From the NCBI GenBank assembly GCA_017961705.1, contig JAGCWT010000113.1, positions 8,681 to 72,680 on the forward strand: DNA of 64,000 nucleotides. Direction: 5' to 3'. Shown in pieces: positions 7,090-14,067 of this stretch (within the stretch, counting starts at the first letter, position 1; each line of letters starts with the position of its first letter). The notes beneath the pieces are model-generated. The model was not told the DNA's origin, made no database searches, and saw only the letters and a program-made list of their open reading frames with translations. Made by a program: the position numbers and the translations under genes. The DNA comes from Treponema sp. GTDB lineage: Bacteria > Spirochaetota > Spirochaetia > Treponematales > Treponemataceae.

Positions 7090-8232
7090 TTAAAAATCTT
7101 TTTCCCAAGTAGGGTCTACTTTTTCACAAATATTTTTTTCTTCGTAGGGGTTGGAATTTTTTTCAAAAAACTTGCAGCGGGTTATAGCAGGTTTGATGTT
7201 TATCGTCTCGCCTATGTAAAAATTGCTTTTATCATTTTTGGGAATTTTTGCAATAATTTCTGTACTGCCTAACATAAAATGTATGTAATTAAAGAATTCA
7301 AACTCTTCTATGGATTTTACTTTAGCTTCTATGTTGTTTTCGTCCCAAGAGGTTTCTTTGTAGTAAAAATCTTCTAGGCGAATTCCAAGAGTGACTTTTT
7401 TCCCTATAAATTTCTTTAAGCCTTCTTGCTGCTCTTCTGTTGGTAAAATGTTTTTTCCCGCATGTTCTACTATGATAAATGGTTCATAAGTTGAATTGGG
7501 ATTTTCTATTTTCTGAACCTCAACTTCAATAAAATTCATTCCACCTGTTGCCAAAGCGACTGTTTTATTAAAAGGATGGTTATATATGTACTGATACTCC
7601 CCTGTTTGGTAAATAGAATTATCATGTATTACTACTACAAAGCCAAAAGCTTTTCCTCCAGTATTAATAGAACCTAAATAATTATTTATTCTAGAAATTT
7701 GCTCCGAATCCTTCCATGAGTCATCGGGTGTTTCTAGGATATTAATTTCGCTTTCAGGATTACTTTCGTTTTTTGCGAAGAAAATATTTTTGCCCAAAGA
7801 TTCTTCTTGATAAACCCAAACAGACTTTCCTTCATAGTTTTTTAACTTGTCTTTGGTTGAACCGGCAATTGTTAGTGTTTTGGAAGATGTTGTTGCTATT
7901 AGATTTGTACCAGTAGAAGTTAATGTTGATTCCTCATAGGAGATATTAGGCACATCTACCCAGTTTTTTCCGTTATACCAACTTGTTGAATATTTATTTG
8001 TTAAAACAGTAAGAACACTTCTGTTTGCAGGGTGTTCAAGCAGGTATTCATAGGTTCCCATTTGCTGGACTTTTTGGTTGTAGCATACTGCAAGATATGT
8101 ACCTTTTTGCCATTTTGATTCTGGGGAATAATCTGAATCTTCTCCAGAAGAGCCGTTAGCACAGGCAAAAAACAGAAATGTTAGAAGAAGAAATACCCCC
8201 CCCCTCGATGTTTTAAGTTTACTTTTAATCAT
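7090..8232 (-). CDS. Lipoprotein composed of duplicated MalK/MsmX C-terminal (TOBE/OB regulatory)-like segments, no ATPase domain
   Basis: Lipobox FFAC; VQQMGTYEYLLEHPANRSV and IYQTGEYQYIYNHPFNKTV...GMNFI...FIGKKVTLGIRLED...IEAKV...GETINI...FFE. Confidence 0.7.
   Translation of the reverse strand: MIKSKLKTSRGGVFLLLTFLFFACANGSSGEDSDYSPESKWQKGTYLAVCYNQKVQQMGTYEYLLEHPANRSVLTVLTNKYSTSWYNGKNWVDVPNISYEESTLTSTGTNLIATTSSKTLTIAGSTKDKLKNYEGKSVWVYQEESLGKNIFFAKNESNPESEINILETPDDSWKDSEQISRINNYLGSINTGGKAFGFVVVIHDNSIYQTGEYQYIYNHPFNKTVALATGGMNFIEVEVQKIENPNSTYEPFIIVEHAGKNILPTEEQQEGLKKFIGKKVTLGIRLEDFYYKETSWDENNIEAKVKSIEEFEFFNYIHFMLGSTEIIAKIPKNDKSNFYIGETINIKPAITRCKFFEKNSNPYEEKNICEKVDPTWEKDF
8196..8204 (-). repeat. 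G9 homopolymer in the signal-peptide coding region (possible phase-variation tract)
   Basis: C9 on the plus strand within an AT-rich gene; encodes R-G-G-V at codons 10-13. Confidence 0.6.
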
Positions 8233-8259
8233 GTTTTGCTCCTTTTTTGGATTATATGG

Positions 8260-11200
8260 TTAATTTGAGTTAAATGGAACTGATAAAACGTCATCGCCAG
8301 GCCATATGGTATCGTTTATTCTACTATTGGCTAGGATAGTTACACCAGCAGCTATATGACAAAGATTTGAAGTTGCAGTAGATTCACTAGTTGTATTTCC
8401 TGTATCTTTAGTAGTGGAATTTAATGCAAGTTTTACAGTTCCTTCAGAAACGCAAATACCACCGCCACGTCCAGAGTTTGATGCTCTATTATCATATATT
8501 TTTACAGGATTTTCCATTGTTAATATACTGGAGGTCTCGGTACGATCCAAAACATAAATTCCGCCTCCATCTCCTGCCCAGGAACTGTTTTCATATATTT
8601 CTGTATTGCCCCTTAAGTTAATTGTAGCTCCGAAACAATAAATTCCGCCTCCATTTCCATAGCTTTGGGCAGAGTTGTGATGAATTTTACAGTTTGTTAG
8701 TGTTACTTCCCCTCCTCTGCTGTAAATGGCGCCTCCTGATGATTGGGTATTATCACAATAGGATATTTCTGCACCTGTTAATTCAATAGTACCAAGGCTA
8801 TTATAAATTCCTGAGCGTCCGCCAGATGTATTATTGTCGCAGTTTTTAATAAGAAGATTTTCGGTTGACTTTAGGGTTGCACCAGATTGTACAGTAATAC
8901 CAGCTGCATAAGCTTCGTCACTTGATACATATTTTCCACTGCCGTTCATGACTGTACTGTTGTTTAAGGTTAAGTCATGGCCAGCTACGTTTATGCCGCC
9001 TTTTAGGCCGGAGAAGTTTATGCTGTCTACTATTACGCCTTCTGCATTAACTTCAATTTGGTAGGCAGATGAGTCGGAACCACCATTTATTGTGCGGCGA
9101 GTTGAGTCTGTGTCGCTTATTATTTTTATGTGTGAAGTTGTTATGCTTAAATTGTCTGAGAGTGTTATGTCTTCGCAGATTTTTATTTCGTATTCGTTTC
9201 CTGCAGTTGCTGCTGATAGAGTGTCTACATGTGCTAGGGCTTCTTCAAGAGTTGAGAAATTACAGTCAGAGCTGCTGCCAACTGTAAAAGATGTGCCGCC
9301 AGATGAGGCTAGTGCGAGGATGCCAGTGTTAGGCGTGGCGGAAGTATTGTATTGTATGCAAAGAGTGTCGTCTTCGAGTTCAAAGTATGTGCATTGTGCT
9401 GCTGTAACTGAGGTTGAAGTATCAGATCCCTTTAGGAGTGCATCACCAATGGTAAAAGATGAATCACTATATGAAAGAGGAATTTCGCTAGTTCCGGAAA
9501 GGGCAAAATCGTTAGCTAAATAAAGAGGATTTGTATTTAAATAAATTCCGTCTGCAAAATAAGTAGAACCAGAAAGGGTTAATTTTCCTGCTGCATACAC
9601 GCCATTTCCTTTGCCGCTAGCCGTATTGCCGGAAATGTCTGTGCAGGAGTCTACCATAAGAAATCTTCCTGATGTAATAGAAATTCCGCCACCATCTGCA
9701 TTAGAAGAATTGTTTTTGATTTTTGTAGTTGCTACAGAGCTTGCAGCCTCTTGTGTTGAATAAATCTGCAAGCCACCGCCTTGACCAGCAGCTTTATTAA
9801 ATAATATTTCACTATCGCAAATTCCTACAGTGGCACTAGGTTTAGACGCATTGATTGCACCCCCTGCGCTTCCTGCATAGTTGCCATTTATTTTTGAATC
9901 AATGGCTGTAAGTGATGAGTAGGCATCAAGAAGAATACCGCCTCCGGCACCTTCAGAATAATTTCCTCCGGCTTCAATGCAGGTGTCCTTGTCTTCACTG
10001 GCTACACTTGTGGGACTTTCAACTCCAATAGTACAGTTGTCCATGTTTATATTTGCCGCTACTGTTGAAGTACCAACTGCGTGGATGGCACCACCTTCGT
10101 TTGATGCGTAATTTTTGGAAAGCACGCAATTGGTTAGGTTTAGAGTACCTTTTGAATAAATGGCACCTCCGTAACCTGCCATACAATTGGTTATGTTGCA
10201 ATTTGTTAAAGTTACGGTTCCTTCCGAATAAATGGCTCCACCAGGCCCACCAGAGGCAACGCATAGGTTAAAATCAAAATCTGTAGCTTTAAATGTTGCA
10301 CCGCTTGCTGTAAAAACGGCGCCTCCGCAATAGTTAGAGTCAACAACATTACCAATACATATACTAAATTCACCATTTCCCATTATGACTGTGCCGCTTT
10401 CAACTTTAAATCCCGCCATTTGAGAAAAATTTATGTCTGTAAAGTTTATGTCTGCAGTGCTTGTAAGTGAGTGTGAATCTCCGTTTACAGTACGCTTTGT
10501 ACCGTCATCAGCATCAGTTATTATCTCTGTTTTTTTTGTAAGTGCTATGTTTGAAGTTTCTGTTGTATTTGTTTGCAGGATAATTCTGAATCCATCCGCA
10601 GGTGTTGCGGTTGAGTTGGTTACTAGGTTTGCAGCTTGGCCTAGGGTTTTTACGGGGCTAAAGATGCTGCCTGTTCCTGTGGCAGTGCCGTTTGTGCCGT
10701 GAACATAGAAGGTTGTGAGTTGCGTGGAGCTTAAATGGCTTGCTTCTAGCTTTATTTCGCCGGATGATGAGTCAATGTAGAGTTCATCTCCGTAGAATTT
10801 GTTTGTTTCAAAGCCTTTGTAGACATTTACGATTTGTTCCAAGTAGTAGATGGTTTGGCCACTTGAGTCTTTAAAATAAACGGTGAGCTTGTGGGGGCCA
10901 AGGGGTACAGATGATCTTGCGTATGTAAATGTTTTGTAACTACCGGAAGTTATAAAGGATGAGTTATTTACGCTGACTGTAGCGGTGTCAAATCCTACCA
11001 TTTTTGCTGCTATGGAATTAACGGGAATAGAGTCCGCGTAGCTTATTTTTAGATTAACAGTTCCCGTGCCGGAAGCGGGGGTGGTTGGGTATTTTAGAAG
11101 AAAGTTTTTGCCACTGTCGTTTGCTGCGTCTATGGTTGCCGAGGCGCTTAGGAATACGGTGCCGCCAGACAGGGCTTCTGCTGTTACGGTCCAGTTGCCG

Positions 11201-11520
11201 CTTGACGGAAAAGAAAGGCTGTATGTTATGTTGGAGGAATCAGAGTCGTCTACCGTTCCGTTTGTTGTTTCGCTGCCTTTTTGGGCGGTTACTCTATAGG
11301 TAAAAGATTCTGGAACTGTTGGAAAGGCGGTTCTTGCAGACTGTGTGCCTGAACTTGCAGAAGGTAGTGCACCGTTTACGATTAGTCTTCCAGAAAGGGT
11401 TGCACATGTGGTGTGGGTTGTGCTTTCCCTTTGTTCATCTGGTGCAGACGCGATGTTTGAGCAGGCCGCAAGGGTAAGAGAAGCTGTGAAAAAGAAAATC
11501 CTTAAAAACTTTTTTAACAT
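8260..11520 (-). CDS. Large surface lipoprotein with Pmp-like GGAI/GGGI beta-helix repeats
   Basis: Lipobox LAAC; GGAIYS, GGAIHA and GGGIY repeats; FYVHGTNGTATGTGSIFSPVKTL. Confidence 0.88.
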   Translation of the reverse strand: MLKKFLRIFFFTASLTLAACSNIASAPDEQRESTTHTTCATLSGRLIVNGALPSASSGTQSARTAFPTVPESFTYRVTAQKGSETTNGTVDDSDSSNITYSLSFPSSGNWTVTAEALSGGTVFLSASATIDAANDSGKNFLLKYPTTPASGTGTVNLKISYADSIPVNSIAAKMVGFDTATVSVNNSSFITSGSYKTFTYARSSVPLGPHKLTVYFKDSSGQTIYYLEQIVNVYKGFETNKFYGDELYIDSSSGEIKLEASHLSSTQLTTFYVHGTNGTATGTGSIFSPVKTLGQAANLVTNSTATPADGFRIILQTNTTETSNIALTKKTEIITDADDGTKRTVNGDSHSLTSTADINFTDINFSQMAGFKVESGTVIMGNGEFSICIGNVVDSNYCGGAVFTASGATFKATDFDFNLCVASGGPGGAIYSEGTVTLTNCNITNCMAGYGGAIYSKGTLNLTNCVLSKNYASNEGGAIHAVGTSTVAANINMDNCTIGVESPTSVASEDKDTCIEAGGNYSEGAGGGILLDAYSSLTAIDSKINGNYAGSAGGAINASKPSATVGICDSEILFNKAAGQGGGLQIYSTQEAASSVATTKIKNNSSNADGGGISITSGRFLMVDSCTDISGNTASGKGNGVYAAGKLTLSGSTYFADGIYLNTNPLYLANDFALSGTSEIPLSYSDSSFTIGDALLKGSDTSTSVTAAQCTYFELEDDTLCIQYNTSATPNTGILALASSGGTSFTVGSSSDCNFSTLEEALAHVDTLSAATAGNEYEIKICEDITLSDNLSITTSHIKIISDTDSTRRTINGGSDSSAYQIEVNAEGVIVDSINFSGLKGGINVAGHDLTLNNSTVMNGSGKYVSSDEAYAAGITVQSGATLKSTENLLIKNCDNNTSGGRSGIYNSLGTIELTGAEISYCDNTQSSGGAIYSRGGEVTLTNCKIHHNSAQSYGNGGGIYCFGATINLRGNTEIYENSSWAGDGGGIYVLDRTETSSILTMENPVKIYDNRASNSGRGGGICVSEGTVKLALNSTTKDTGNTTSESTATSNLCHIAAGVTILANSRINDTIWPGDDVLSVPFNSN

Positions 11521-11532
11521 CTTTTTTACCCT

Positions 11533-13911
11533 CTAGGTTTTATTAACCACCATCTCGCAGGAATATCTTGTTCCATTGAAGGTTACAAAGATAACAATTA
11601 CGTAACTTCCTGCCGGATAGGCAGCTGGGAATGTTAGTTGTAGCGGAGTTGTAGCTGCTGGTACTGCTGCAGGTGTTGGCGCCGCTGTTGGAGATGCATG
11701 GCGGTAGTCATATTCGTAATAGGCCTTTATGTCCCAGTCGGTGAATTTTGTTGGCTCGTCTGTTGGGGTAACAGTTGTGCCGTTTTCGAGGGTTCCGGTT
11801 GCGGATATTGTTATTGTTGTATCTCCAATTGATGCTATTGAAGTAGGAGTTGGTTGTAGCATAAGCTTTCCGTCTGGGGTGTAGACGGAGATGCTTCCAC
11901 CGGAAACGGCAAGGGCGGCTTCCCCTTCTGCTGTTTTTATGACTCCGAAAGCGTCGGAACTCGTAAAATATGTTGAAGGGGCTGCGGTGTTACCTGATGA
12001 TGTATAGCCATCTGTAAATACGCGAGGGGTTCCGGGGCTTGGGCTGTCTAGTATTAGGTTTGTAAGTTTAATTGTGTTGTTGCTGCTACCTGCCATGTTG
12101 CCGTCAATAGTGAGTATACTGCTAGTACCTAAATTAAAAGTGAGGCCGATAACTTTTCCTTTGATAGTTACGTCACCTGAATTTATAACGTTGTTGTTTG
12201 AGGAAGTAACGTTTTTAAGCGTTACCTTGGCAGTAACTACTTCTTGTCCGTCTGCTTTTGCAAGGACTACGTTCTCCAGCACTTTGTTGGCGCCAACTAT
12301 TTTTTTGTTGGTATCGCTTCCTGCAATGGTTGCATTTTTTACTACACAGCCATTACCGATGCTTAGTTTAACATCTGTGAGCGTATGGTTTTGGCAGTTA
12401 ATACAATCTGTTGAGAATATATTTGTATCGGGTTGTTCGGGACCAAGGTCGTTTAGTACTAAAATGGTTCTGACGGCTCCACCTGCATCTGTGAGCGATG
12501 GTAAATTCTCATCAGCATATTTTATTGTTTTATACGGATTCTCTATAGTTCCATTTCCAGGGGCATCGACTCCTGTTGATTTGACGTATACTTTTGTGGC
12601 TATTACTTGTACCGAGAATGTGGTTATGCTTTGTGTATAGCCGGCCTTTGTGGCGGTACATGCTATTGTGTAGGTTCCAGGTGCAAGGTTAAGGTTACGG
12701 TCGGAAGTTGTAGTGCCTGTGTCTATTTCAGAGCCTGCGTCGTTTGTAACCGTATAAGCTACAGTAACACCGCTTACCGATTTGCTGATTCCGCTTGCCG
12801 TACAGGCAGTTGTTGGGACTTTTATTTTTACCTTTGCATAAGAAGAGTCTTCTTCCTGCCCCAGTTTGATGATTGCTGGTGGTGTTGGTGTATAAATGTC
12901 GGAAGCACCGCTATGGTCTGTTCCGGAAGAATCTGCAAGCTTTACGTCTGCAATTCTGTAGGAGTTTGCGGCAGTGGTAGCAGATGACGTAAGTCCTGCT
13001 TCGTCTATAAGAGAGATTGTGTAGGCTCTGTCTGTGGTAACAGGGTCGCTGGTTTCGTAGTAGAAAGAAGTTCCGCCTGTATTAAAATAGGGCTGTCCGT
13101 TTGGTTGAACATCAGTTCTTGTAGCTACAGCGGCTTGTTGCAAAGGAATAGTAGGAGCATAAGAGAACATTGAAGAACCGCCAGGGAGTAAAGTAATGGG
13201 GATAGAAGTTTCACCTATCTTAAGATATTTCAAATCAAAATTAGTTGGCGGAGCGGACATAGAAATCGTAAAGGCTACGACGTATGTTTTGGCACCTGAT
13301 GTAGCATCTGTTTTTGTGTATGTAACTGCATCTTTAATTACTGGTGGCACAGAGTTGCAGTAGAGCGGGAGCGTAAAGGAAGGAAAATTTGTTCCTGTTT
13401 TTGGGTGGGAAAGGTCTATGCGAACGCTGATGTTTTTGGAAAGCTTTGGAGCGAGTGCACCTACTTTTCCCGGGTCTGCATTTTGCAAAAATGATGCAGG
13501 ATATGTTAACTCCCATTCCGTTGAAGAAGTCATGTTCAGCGAAATTGAATCTGCACCTGGAAGGGAGGCGATTGCGGAATCTACAAGGTGGTAGGACATG
13601 TTTGAGCCGAGCGTAAAGTCAAAATTATTGGGGTTTCTTAGCTGGAGCTTTACAATAATGTCGCTTCCAGAGCCTACGCAGGTGTTGCCGTTTGCATCTT
13701 TTGCGGTTGGGGCAGGGACAAGGGTTCCGCTGTTGTTTACAAAGATTTTAAATCCAACTATTTGTGAACCGTCGGACAGGTTTTCAAAGTATTCGCGGAC
13801 GGGTTCGTTTATGGCATCGGAAATTTGAGAACAGGAATTTATGCAAAGCGGGAAAGCAATGCCCAAAAAAGAGAAAAATGCTACTCGTCTAAAAAAACGA
13901 CTGAATCTCAT
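11533..13911 (-). CDS. Large Thr/Ser/Pro-rich surface lipoprotein
   Basis: Likely start MRFSRFF (ATG 13911, GGGAG RBS); INSC lipobox; YVKSTGVDAPGNGTIENPYKTI beta-helix cap motif. Confidence 0.8.
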   Translation of the reverse strand: MRFSRFFRRVAFFSFLGIAFPLCINSCSQISDAINEPVREYFENLSDGSQIVGFKIFVNNSGTLVPAPTAKDANGNTCVGSGSDIIVKLQLRNPNNFDFTLGSNMSYHLVDSAIASLPGADSISLNMTSSTEWELTYPASFLQNADPGKVGALAPKLSKNISVRIDLSHPKTGTNFPSFTLPLYCNSVPPVIKDAVTYTKTDATSGAKTYVVAFTISMSAPPTNFDLKYLKIGETSIPITLLPGGSSMFSYAPTIPLQQAAVATRTDVQPNGQPYFNTGGTSFYYETSDPVTTDRAYTISLIDEAGLTSSATTAANSYRIADVKLADSSGTDHSGASDIYTPTPPAIIKLGQEEDSSYAKVKIKVPTTACTASGISKSVSGVTVAYTVTNDAGSEIDTGTTTSDRNLNLAPGTYTIACTATKAGYTQSITTFSVQVIATKVYVKSTGVDAPGNGTIENPYKTIKYADENLPSLTDAGGAVRTILVLNDLGPEQPDTNIFSTDCINCQNHTLTDVKLSIGNGCVVKNATIAGSDTNKKIVGANKVLENVVLAKADGQEVVTAKVTLKNVTSSNNNVINSGDVTIKGKVIGLTFNLGTSSILTIDGNMAGSSNNTIKLTNLILDSPSPGTPRVFTDGYTSSGNTAAPSTYFTSSDAFGVIKTAEGEAALAVSGGSISVYTPDGKLMLQPTPTSIASIGDTTITISATGTLENGTTVTPTDEPTKFTDWDIKAYYEYDYRHASPTAAPTPAAVPAATTPLQLTFPAAYPAGSYVIVIFVTFNGTRYSCEMVVNKT

Positions 13912-14067
13912 AAACTCCCACTTTATCCTAGCACCAACCCATTTCCTTGTATTATAAGGCATTTTAAATTTTATTTCAACATTTTTTGTGCTTTTTGTTG
14001 ATTATCGGGTCTAGCCTACACGTTTTGTTTGTATAAATTTATCGGCAGGGGGGTGGGAAATTTTCAG

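Follow-up and report, generated by a model that had tools for sequence, protein, structure and literature searches.

A putative Treponema lipoprotein that appears to be built from a duplicated MsmX-type regulatory domain

Introduction

The MalK-type regulatory domains of ATP-binding cassette (ABC) ATPases are textbook cytoplasmic modules, and the lipoproteins on the surface of host-associated spirochaetes vary, switch phase and for the most part lack annotation. A 380-codon gene (P0001, the target) in a stretch of 64,000 nucleotides from Treponema sp. (assembly GCA_017961705.1, contig JAGCWT010000113.1, positions 8,681 to 72,680; hereafter the window) raises the question of whether such a domain can change compartment and become the body of an exported lipoprotein. 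A first-pass annotation, made from the letters of the window alone, had described the product as a lipoprotein made from the duplicated regulatory tail of a sugar ABC ATPase, and had supposed an exported ligand-binding or adhesion role. The structural and evolutionary core of our answer, namely a real gene in which a duplicated MsmX tail stands behind a lipoprotein signal, we regard as well founded and quite likely correct. The fuller reading, in which this is a lineage-restricted gene for a lipid-anchored extracytoplasmic protein, with a mature part taken wholly from the 3′ end of a genus msmX/malK-type ATPase gene, a scaffold function and a phase switch, is somewhat less secure but still probable in our judgment.

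Results

The C-terminal unit is homologous to a complete MsmX-type regulatory domain

The open reading frame (ORF) on the minus strand is intact, and its translation holds all the peptides quoted in the first-pass annotation. Two units, copy 1 and copy 2, follow the signal peptide and a short tether (Table 1). In the C-terminal unit, copy 2, the Pfam family OB_MalK (PF17912) was matched at residues 232–289 (E 1.1e-6, 29.9 bits against a gathering cut-off of 27), a threshold that only copy 2 passed; no Pfam family was matched by copy 1. The last ~150 positions of the NCBIfam models MalK, GlcV and UgpC cover residues 199–360 with E values of 3e-9 to 2e-8. For the MalK model, positions 204–357 of 369 are aligned (E 3e-9), with a score of 36 bits against a cut-off of 568. 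The PDB sequences 7x0q and 2d62 align across the same residues. TOBE_2 (PF08402) gave no match at E values up to 1, yet the NCBIfam and PDB alignments span residues 290–360. The AlphaFold2 (AF2) model, with a predicted local distance difference test (pLDDT) score of 85–97 for residues 199–375, superposes on the entire MalK-type domain. Foldseek matched it to Bacillus subtilis MsmX (6yir), 2d62, MalK (1g29) and 7x0q with E values of 8e-11 to 1e-9 and a root-mean-square deviation (r.m.s.d.) of 2.1–2.9 Å over ~175 columns. The MalK/MsmX tail pattern that had been read from the letters was thus recovered by profiles, PDB sequences and structure alike, and the lack of any such match, which the first-pass annotation had named as fatal to its reading, is not what we found.

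The nucleotide-binding domain (NBD) is missing. Walker A, Walker B, LSGGQ and the H-loop were all absent from P0001 in a regular-expression search whose control, the genome's own MsmX, showed all four, and no Pfam match to ABC_tran was obtained. The absence of Walker A/B and LSGGQ noted at first reading is thereby confirmed, and without NBD motifs the target does not qualify as a MalK/MsmX/UgpC-type ABC ATP-binding protein.

Both units descend from the MsmX of the genus

One other match was found in the genome, a 394-residue MsmX-like ATPase with all ABC motifs (P0006, locus L002 on contig C237); a separate scan of the genome contigs with P0001 found nothing. Residues 199–380 of the target align with residues 205–381 of this MsmX at 39% identity (BLASTP, E 6e-42), a match far better than that to any PDB MalK, and the PLGAETH strand of MsmX has been rewritten in copy 2. 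The MsmX proteins of the genus carry an unusual extension (FF.KN plus five residues, NICEK, D..W) that follows the TOBE barrel and is absent from more distant Treponemataceae ATPases. Because both copies retain this genus-specific tail (FF.KN..., NI.E, D..W), the donor was the genus's own MsmX. In the trees, the lipoprotein clade lies among the MsmX rows of the genus (g1) on a long branch of 2.1–2.6 changes per column. The names of the best ATPase homologues fit a gut or rumen Treponema as the source. The earlier proposal that the mature part came from the cytoplasmic regulatory tail of a sugar ABC ATPase can thus be made more specific.

Among the genus MsmX/UgpC-type genes themselves (L002:1492-2070, L003-L033), the extension is conserved, 25–70 residues long and of the form KNPEDLDEE.NICEKIDAPWL.NP.TG.VGYDK. 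In some species it is followed by a Lys/Ala-rich tail.

The N-terminal unit is a truncated copy

Copy 1 could also be traced to the genome's own MsmX by BLASTP, residues 44–139 matching MsmX residues 202–282 (E 4e-9) and residues 151–173 matching the MsmX tail at 356–378 (E 5e-4), and the N-terminal half matched copy 2 with an E value of 2e-6. In our alignment A3, copy 1 is collinear with MsmX, has a 15-residue insert after the helix, and is without ~66 residues, which comprise the GVRPEDLS segment and ~58 residues of the TOBE_2 barrel. The description of the protein as duplicated therefore stands insofar as two MsmX-derived units are present, but the duplication is not a full one, since copy 1 is without the TOBE_2 barrel.

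An ESM Atlas model of residues 40–171 fell to MalK OB/TOBE clusters with template modelling (TM) scores of 0.55–0.59, and an Atlas feature search with the N-terminal half returned scores all at or below 0.80. In AF2, copy 1 had a pLDDT below 50 with a mixed alignment and of 82 with A3, so that a confident fold was obtained only with MsmX sequences in the alignment, which bias the model toward that fold. The best Foldseek matches of the A3-based model were MsmX and MalK, at an E value of only ~0.04. For the linker between the copies, no homology was found.

In the trees, copies 1 and 2 fall on the same side of a branch that separates them from all ATPases (support 87/87), as would be expected if a unit captured once had later been duplicated, although long-branch attraction could produce the same grouping. 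Judged from these sequences, a single capture was probably followed by a tandem duplication within the gene, and copy 1 is the older-looking of the two units.

We also predicted the two halves as separate chains of a complex. The score was 0.51, compared with 0.00 for the best of 3 controls, and cleared a mark that 58 of 80 solved complexes, and 2 of 110 mismatched pairs, also attain; with a score up to 0.60, only 7 of the 80 solved complexes cleared it, as did both of these mismatches. Runs agreed in at least 81% of contacts, with a partner pLDDT of at least 83, using alignments that we had made ourselves. As pairs of MalK regulatory domains are solved structures, the pass may reflect memory. 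The prediction lends weak support to a packing of the copy 1 and copy 2 barrels in the way that MalK regulatory domains pair.

A Thr/Ser-rich stretch of copy 1, residues 78–126 (window 7855-8001), was considered separately. In a representative search a 3464-residue Bacteroidota-type adhesin (P0009) matched this stretch 35 times, and kinship with SprB repeats was entertained. We set it aside, as each repeat matched with an E value of ~1e-4 and 40% identity over 47 Thr/Ser-rich residues. The resemblance is probably compositional and at best a weak lead. It is further disfavoured by the lack of a Pfam SprB repeat in the target and by the collinearity of the region with the MsmX OB barrel.

The target carries a lipoprotein-type signal peptide

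The signal was judged by inspection, for a charged n-region, a hydrophobic h-region and a lipobox Cys within ~15–35 residues of the start. By these marks the target has the sequence of a lipoprotein (a signal peptidase II substrate): its n-region has a net charge of +4, the hydrophobic core is 10 residues long, and the mean Kyte-Doolittle value across the 12 residues preceding Cys24 is 2.6. Phe at positions -3 and -2 of the lipobox is atypical with respect to the Escherichia coli consensus and resembles the LFFSC of P0176, a second lipoprotein described below. The signal peptide is conserved in the homologue on the metagenome contig L025 (P0008), and the tether behind it varies in length, with a 9-residue insert in L025. 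The lipobox claimed at the outset thus holds, as FFAC, as a prediction by inspection, and we infer that the protein would be exported and lipidated at Cys24.

Homologues share a syntenic slot, and the target shows purifying selection

Among 5.8 billion clusters, the target was found in P0002 at 99% identity (3 contigs) and in others at 89%, 70% and 73% identity; in P0003 the frame is intact over 323 residues. An exhaustive representative search added only an 89-residue N-terminal piece. On two metagenome contigs, L024 and the 563-kb L025, the homologue occupies the same syntenic slot, in the order pyrB, pyrC, a 788-residue ORF, a lipoprotein of ~1100 residues and the target, followed by cobW and znuA on the opposite strand. 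An assembly artefact is ruled out by the occurrence of the gene in the window, P0002 (3 contigs), P0003, L024 and L025 with conserved synteny. Compared with the window, L025 has ~1.4 kb extra between the target and cobW, within which lie two overlapping minus-strand ORFs of 151 and 154 residues (L025:11543-12446).

Compared with the L024 and L025 homologues (70–73% identity), the ratio of nonsynonymous to synonymous divergence (dN/dS) is 0.17 for residues 1–80, 0.20 for residues 85–198 and 0.20 for residues 199–380, at a dS of ~0.75 (binomial p 3e-15). These low ratios indicate that purifying selection has acted on the signal peptide and on each of the two units through most of the divergence. 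The ratio is higher in the neighbouring 1086-residue lipoprotein gene (0.39–0.43).

A G tract in the signal-peptide codons differs among relatives

The G9 tract of the target lies in frame within the codons of the signal peptide (Table 1). L025 has a G8 counterpart that is in frame and L024 a G9 counterpart that is not, in contigs separated by a dS of only 0.07; tract length thus varies among relatives and shifts the frame. The genome has 27 runs of at least 8 G or C, a total not clearly above the expectation for independent, identically distributed bases. In four cases (the target and three others) the run falls among codons 1–12 of a signal-peptide ORF, and in a further two it lies a short way upstream of one, which suggests a small set of tract-controlled surface-protein genes. 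For the target, we infer from these sequences that slippage in G9 may switch expression ON and OFF.

In T. pallidum, poly-G tracts are documented to control surface-protein genes, for example tpr genes (PMC7864442). The target resembles these loci in having G9 at the 5′ end of a putative surface-protein gene, with frame-changing length differences among close relatives. It differs in that its tract lies inside signal-peptide codons and is known here from the sequences of relatives, whereas the tracts described in T. pallidum lie mainly in promoter regions and affect transcription.

Other lipoproteins of Treponemataceae have captured the same domain

Among the more distant matches were two further families, from Treponemataceae metagenomes, in which an MsmX domain follows a lipoprotein signal. 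In P0013 and P0058, a lipoprotein signal with TGC at its end leads into a module of ~95 His/Cys-rich residues, after which the chain continues as an MsmX domain from the MNI/MNF motif onward; the closest relative of that domain, and its sister in the tree, is the ATPase P0070 (72% identity). P0010 and P0176 have a signal ending in LFFSC, a Flg_new repeat and an MsmX fragment ~70% identical to ATPases, with a 5′ breakpoint at the same IVVMKDG strand as in the target; they nest within the P0099/P0087/P0089 ATPase clade. Each of these families lies inside a different ATPase clade with starred support, and under the approximately unbiased (AU) test a tree in which all MsmX domains borne on lipoproteins form one clade is rejected with a p value of 0.001, for a group that was named after the first tree had been seen. 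The separate nesting and the AU test indicate that the two families captured the domain independently, which strengthens the earlier claim of recruitment. Like the target, they have a lipoprotein signal followed by an MsmX regulatory domain that runs to the C terminus of the ATPase. They differ from the target in being separate captures of far more recent date, still ~70% identical to ATPases from their respective clades, with a single copy of the domain and other N-terminal modules (TvpA-like His/Cys-rich or Flg_new).

The TvpA-like N-terminal module, that is, the TGC signal with ~95 His/Cys-rich residues, was seen in the metagenome proteins P0013, P0058, P0077, P0102, P0114, P0116 and P0153. 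It also occurs on a TvpA-like C-type-lectin domain (P0077 against PDB 2y3c, E 1e-52), so that in P0013 and P0058 the MsmX domain stands in place of the ligand-binding C-type-lectin domain of TvpA-like lipoproteins. The same module was further found with leucine-rich repeats, with a ribosomal L1 fragment inside a Flg_new repeat (P0153) and with signalling fragments of methyl-accepting chemotaxis proteins (MCP; P0102 and P0116). The target itself has no PF03781 match and is not a variable lipoprotein of the TvpA-like kind associated with diversity-generating retroelements (DGR); only the unrelated chimera P0013/P0058 shares the TvpA-like module. The reverse transcriptase family RVT_1 was not found in the target's own genome, which is 88% complete, leaving retro-capture without support at this locus.

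Genomic context

The target closes a cluster of three lipoprotein genes whose synteny is conserved in relatives. Its ATG lies 27 nucleotides past the stop codon of the upstream 1086-residue ORF, and the AAGGAG that precedes it also precedes its homologues in L024 and L025. For the 1086-residue ORF, which has homologues directly upstream of the target homologue in both contigs, matches to the Chlam_PMP repeat of Pfam were sub-threshold only (E 0.07), and the leading Atlas matches were beta-helix and pectate-lyase-like adhesin clusters. No Pfam family was matched by the 809-residue ORF at the start of the cluster, an uncharacterised large surface-protein candidate with a syntenic counterpart in the 788-residue ORF of L025. 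The supposed operon of beta-helix lipoproteins is thus upheld as far as both upstream ORFs have lipoprotein-like N termini, but its beta-helix character is only partly backed. Scans for promoters and terminators around the target gave background levels.

Table 1. Coordinates of the target, its parts and related features, in the window unless another contig is named
Feature	Position	Strand	Remarks
Target gene (P0001)	7090-8232	-	intact 380-codon ORF; ATG at 8232, stop 7090-7092
Ribosome-binding site AAGGAG	8239..8244	-	6 nt ahead of target ATG; read directly
Lipoprotein-type signal peptide, codons 1-24	8161..8232	-	hydrophobic core VFLLLTFLFF, lipobox-like FFAC, Cys24; by inspection
G9 homopolymer tract, codons 10-13 of signal peptide	8196..8204	-	in frame
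Ser/Gly/Asp-rich tether, residues 25-43	8104..8160	-	pLDDT <45 in AF2 model
Copy 1, residues 44-173	7714..8103	-	MsmX NBD-tail hairpin and helix, OB_MalK-like barrel with 15-aa insert, TOBE_2 barrel deleted, genus-specific tail
Linker between copies, residues 174-195	7648..7713	-	predicted helix 176-189; AF2
Copy 2, residues 196-380	7093..7647	-	NBD-tail hairpin and helix, OB_MalK, TOBE_2, genus-specific tail with Cys353 and Cys369; profiles, BLASTP, AF2, Foldseek
Upstream gene, 1086-aa putative lipoprotein (LTLAAC)	8260..11520	-	GGAIY-type repeats, probably beta-helix
First gene of cluster, 809-aa putative lipoprotein	11533..13962	-	lipoprotein-like N terminus
Shared frame break in target homologues	L025:10255-10270; L024:10256-10271		A9 or A8G run
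Other G/C runs of 8-9, in first 12 codons of or just upstream of signal/lipoprotein ORFs	G000 C28:14508-14516, C149:7330-7338, C218:1513-1520, C20:11499-11506, C82:31415-31423

Discussion

The target thus arose when a lipoprotein signal came to stand before a fragment of MsmX that starts with the last hairpin and helix of the NBD, takes in the regulatory domain and ends with the genus-specific tail. Two such units are now present, of which copy 2 is complete, whereas copy 1 has lost the TOBE_2 barrel and gained the 15-residue insert. We propose that the unit was captured once and duplicated in tandem. The protein would be exported and lipidated at Cys24, its two beta-barrel units would pack against one another in a MalK-like manner, and it could act, as a scaffold or a binding module, on the two large lipoproteins transcribed with it, with expression switched by slippage in the G9 tract. 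The two further captures would point to a selectable role outside the cell. The regulatory domains of MalK, MsmX and UgpC mediate dimerisation and are bound by regulators, among them MalT and EIIA-Glc. Because domains of this kind are known as dimer and regulator surfaces, we tentatively prefer, by analogy, a protein that binds or scaffolds the two upstream lipoproteins to one that binds sugar, and would put the chance of this somewhat short of even.

Compared with the regulatory domain of MalK, MsmX and UgpC (PF17912 and PF08402), copy 2 is homologous over the full length (r.m.s.d. 2.1–2.9 Å) and closest to the genome's own MsmX (39–42% identity), tail included, and copy 1 is a truncated relative. 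Unlike these ATPases, the target has no NBD, stands behind a lipoprotein signal, carries the domain twice per chain, once without TOBE_2, and has strongly diverged. ModE di-Mop (1h9s) and the ModG-type molbindins likewise consist of tandem OB/TOBE barrels without an ATPase. They are weaker fold matches and cytoplasmic oxyanion binders of a lineage of their own, whereas the target is a recent derivative of MsmX.

The role first supposed for the protein, in which its OB/TOBE barrels bind sugar, glycan or an oxyanion at the surface or in the periplasm as an exported ligand-binding or adhesion domain, draws on the ability of OB and TOBE folds elsewhere to bind oligosaccharides or oxyanions. ModE and ModC appear among the weaker Foldseek matches (ranks 44–49), the target follows probable adhesin-like beta-helix lipoproteins, and in P0013/P0058 the MsmX domain replaces a ligand-binding lectin domain. 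However, MalK-type regulatory domains, those of MsmX and UgpC included, are not known to bind the transported sugar, and searches of the literature turned up no relevant account of a MalK/TOBE domain that is exported or linked to a lipoprotein. We therefore regard a ligand-binding role as unlikely, and sugar binding in particular as unsupported. Very improbable, in turn, is a cytoplasmic decoy, which would be translated without export or from Met58 and whose free regulatory domain would pair with MsmX or titrate its regulator and so modulate sugar import. Such a decoy would make use of the dimerisation and regulator-binding surfaces of MalK regulatory domains, copy 2 keeps the whole MsmX domain with the NBD-proximal hairpin, and a gene caller started P0003 at the equivalent of Met58. 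Against it stand a canonical lipoprotein signal with its own ribosome-binding site, conserved and under purifying selection, the low identity of 39% left to MsmX with the PLGAETH strand rewritten, the two independent captures that likewise stand behind lipoprotein signals, and a context of lipoproteins instead of a transporter.

Several observations count against the reading that we favour, and most of them would suit a by-product thrown up when fragments are shuffled into lipoprotein genes, namely a selectively almost neutral chimera, without specific function, that is heading to loss. The distribution is very narrow: the target was not found in the 337 other species genomes of the genus (1/338) or in 24 genomes of sister families, and only about 4 clusters were obtained in the cluster search. 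The homologues in L024 and L025 share a break in the frame, at an A9 or A8G run near codon 80, and dN/dS between these two contigs is 0.69, indistinguishable from 1 (p 0.15). The shared frameshift and the drift imply that the gene is dispensable there, and to judge from these sequences it is probably decaying in that lineage. We note that a single extra A would restore the frame; transcriptional slippage at the A run could still yield some full-length product, and otherwise the break is a shared inactivation. The large internal deletion in copy 1 also fits a decaying chimera, and the fusions of Treponemataceae lipoprotein modules to L1 and MCP fragments, the latter two on the same N-terminal module as P0013/P0058, mean that capture may be a promiscuous mutational process and not selection for this domain. 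To these points are added the post hoc naming of the AU-test group, the dependence of the copy 1 fold on MsmX sequences and the possible long-branch attraction between the copies.

A mere by-product is nonetheless hard to reconcile with a dN/dS of ~0.2 in all three segments, below that of the neighbouring gene, and with frames that are intact in the window, in the 99% identical P0002 and over 323 residues of P0003. Moreover, what copy 1 has lost is one sub-barrel, cut out cleanly, with the closing tail still in place, and copy 2 is modelled at high pLDDT throughout. The first-pass annotation had allowed that the gene might prove to be a strain-specific unexpressed chimera; it is not confined to one strain and bears the mark of selection, but its occurrence in a single species genome and the frameshift in two relatives leave part of that concern standing. 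On balance, the by-product explanation seems to us even less probable than a ligand-binding role, and the reading as a selected, lipid-anchored MsmX derivative is retained.

A bolder account of the recurrence would be that treponemes repeatedly build surface lipoproteins from 3′-anchored fragments of abundant cytoplasmic genes (the msmX domain three times, L1 and MCP) by a dedicated capture mechanism, for example off-target DGR-type cDNA that replaces the 3′ ends of lipoprotein genes, with the TvpA-like module as one carrier and the target as an old capture kept by selection for a function outside the cell. We consider this a speculative proposal with a rather small chance of being right, smaller than that of the by-product explanation.

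Implications

The domain and the lipoprotein signal are each ordinary, and it is their combination, the internal duplication and the recurrence that are new. The target offers a clean natural example of a domain that switches compartment, with a lipoprotein signal, purifying selection and at least three independent captures in one family. For annotation, it means that a 'TOBE/MalK' match in a spirochaete genome need not be a pseudogene or a piece of a transporter. The recurrence cuts both ways: MsmX has been recruited repeatedly, yet cytoplasmic fragments in general join lipoprotein modules in Treponemataceae. If it is true that the cytoplasmic fragments on TvpA-like modules reflect a mechanism, the matter would be of broader interest. 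The target is in any case a tractable one for how new surface proteins arise in host-associated spirochaetes.

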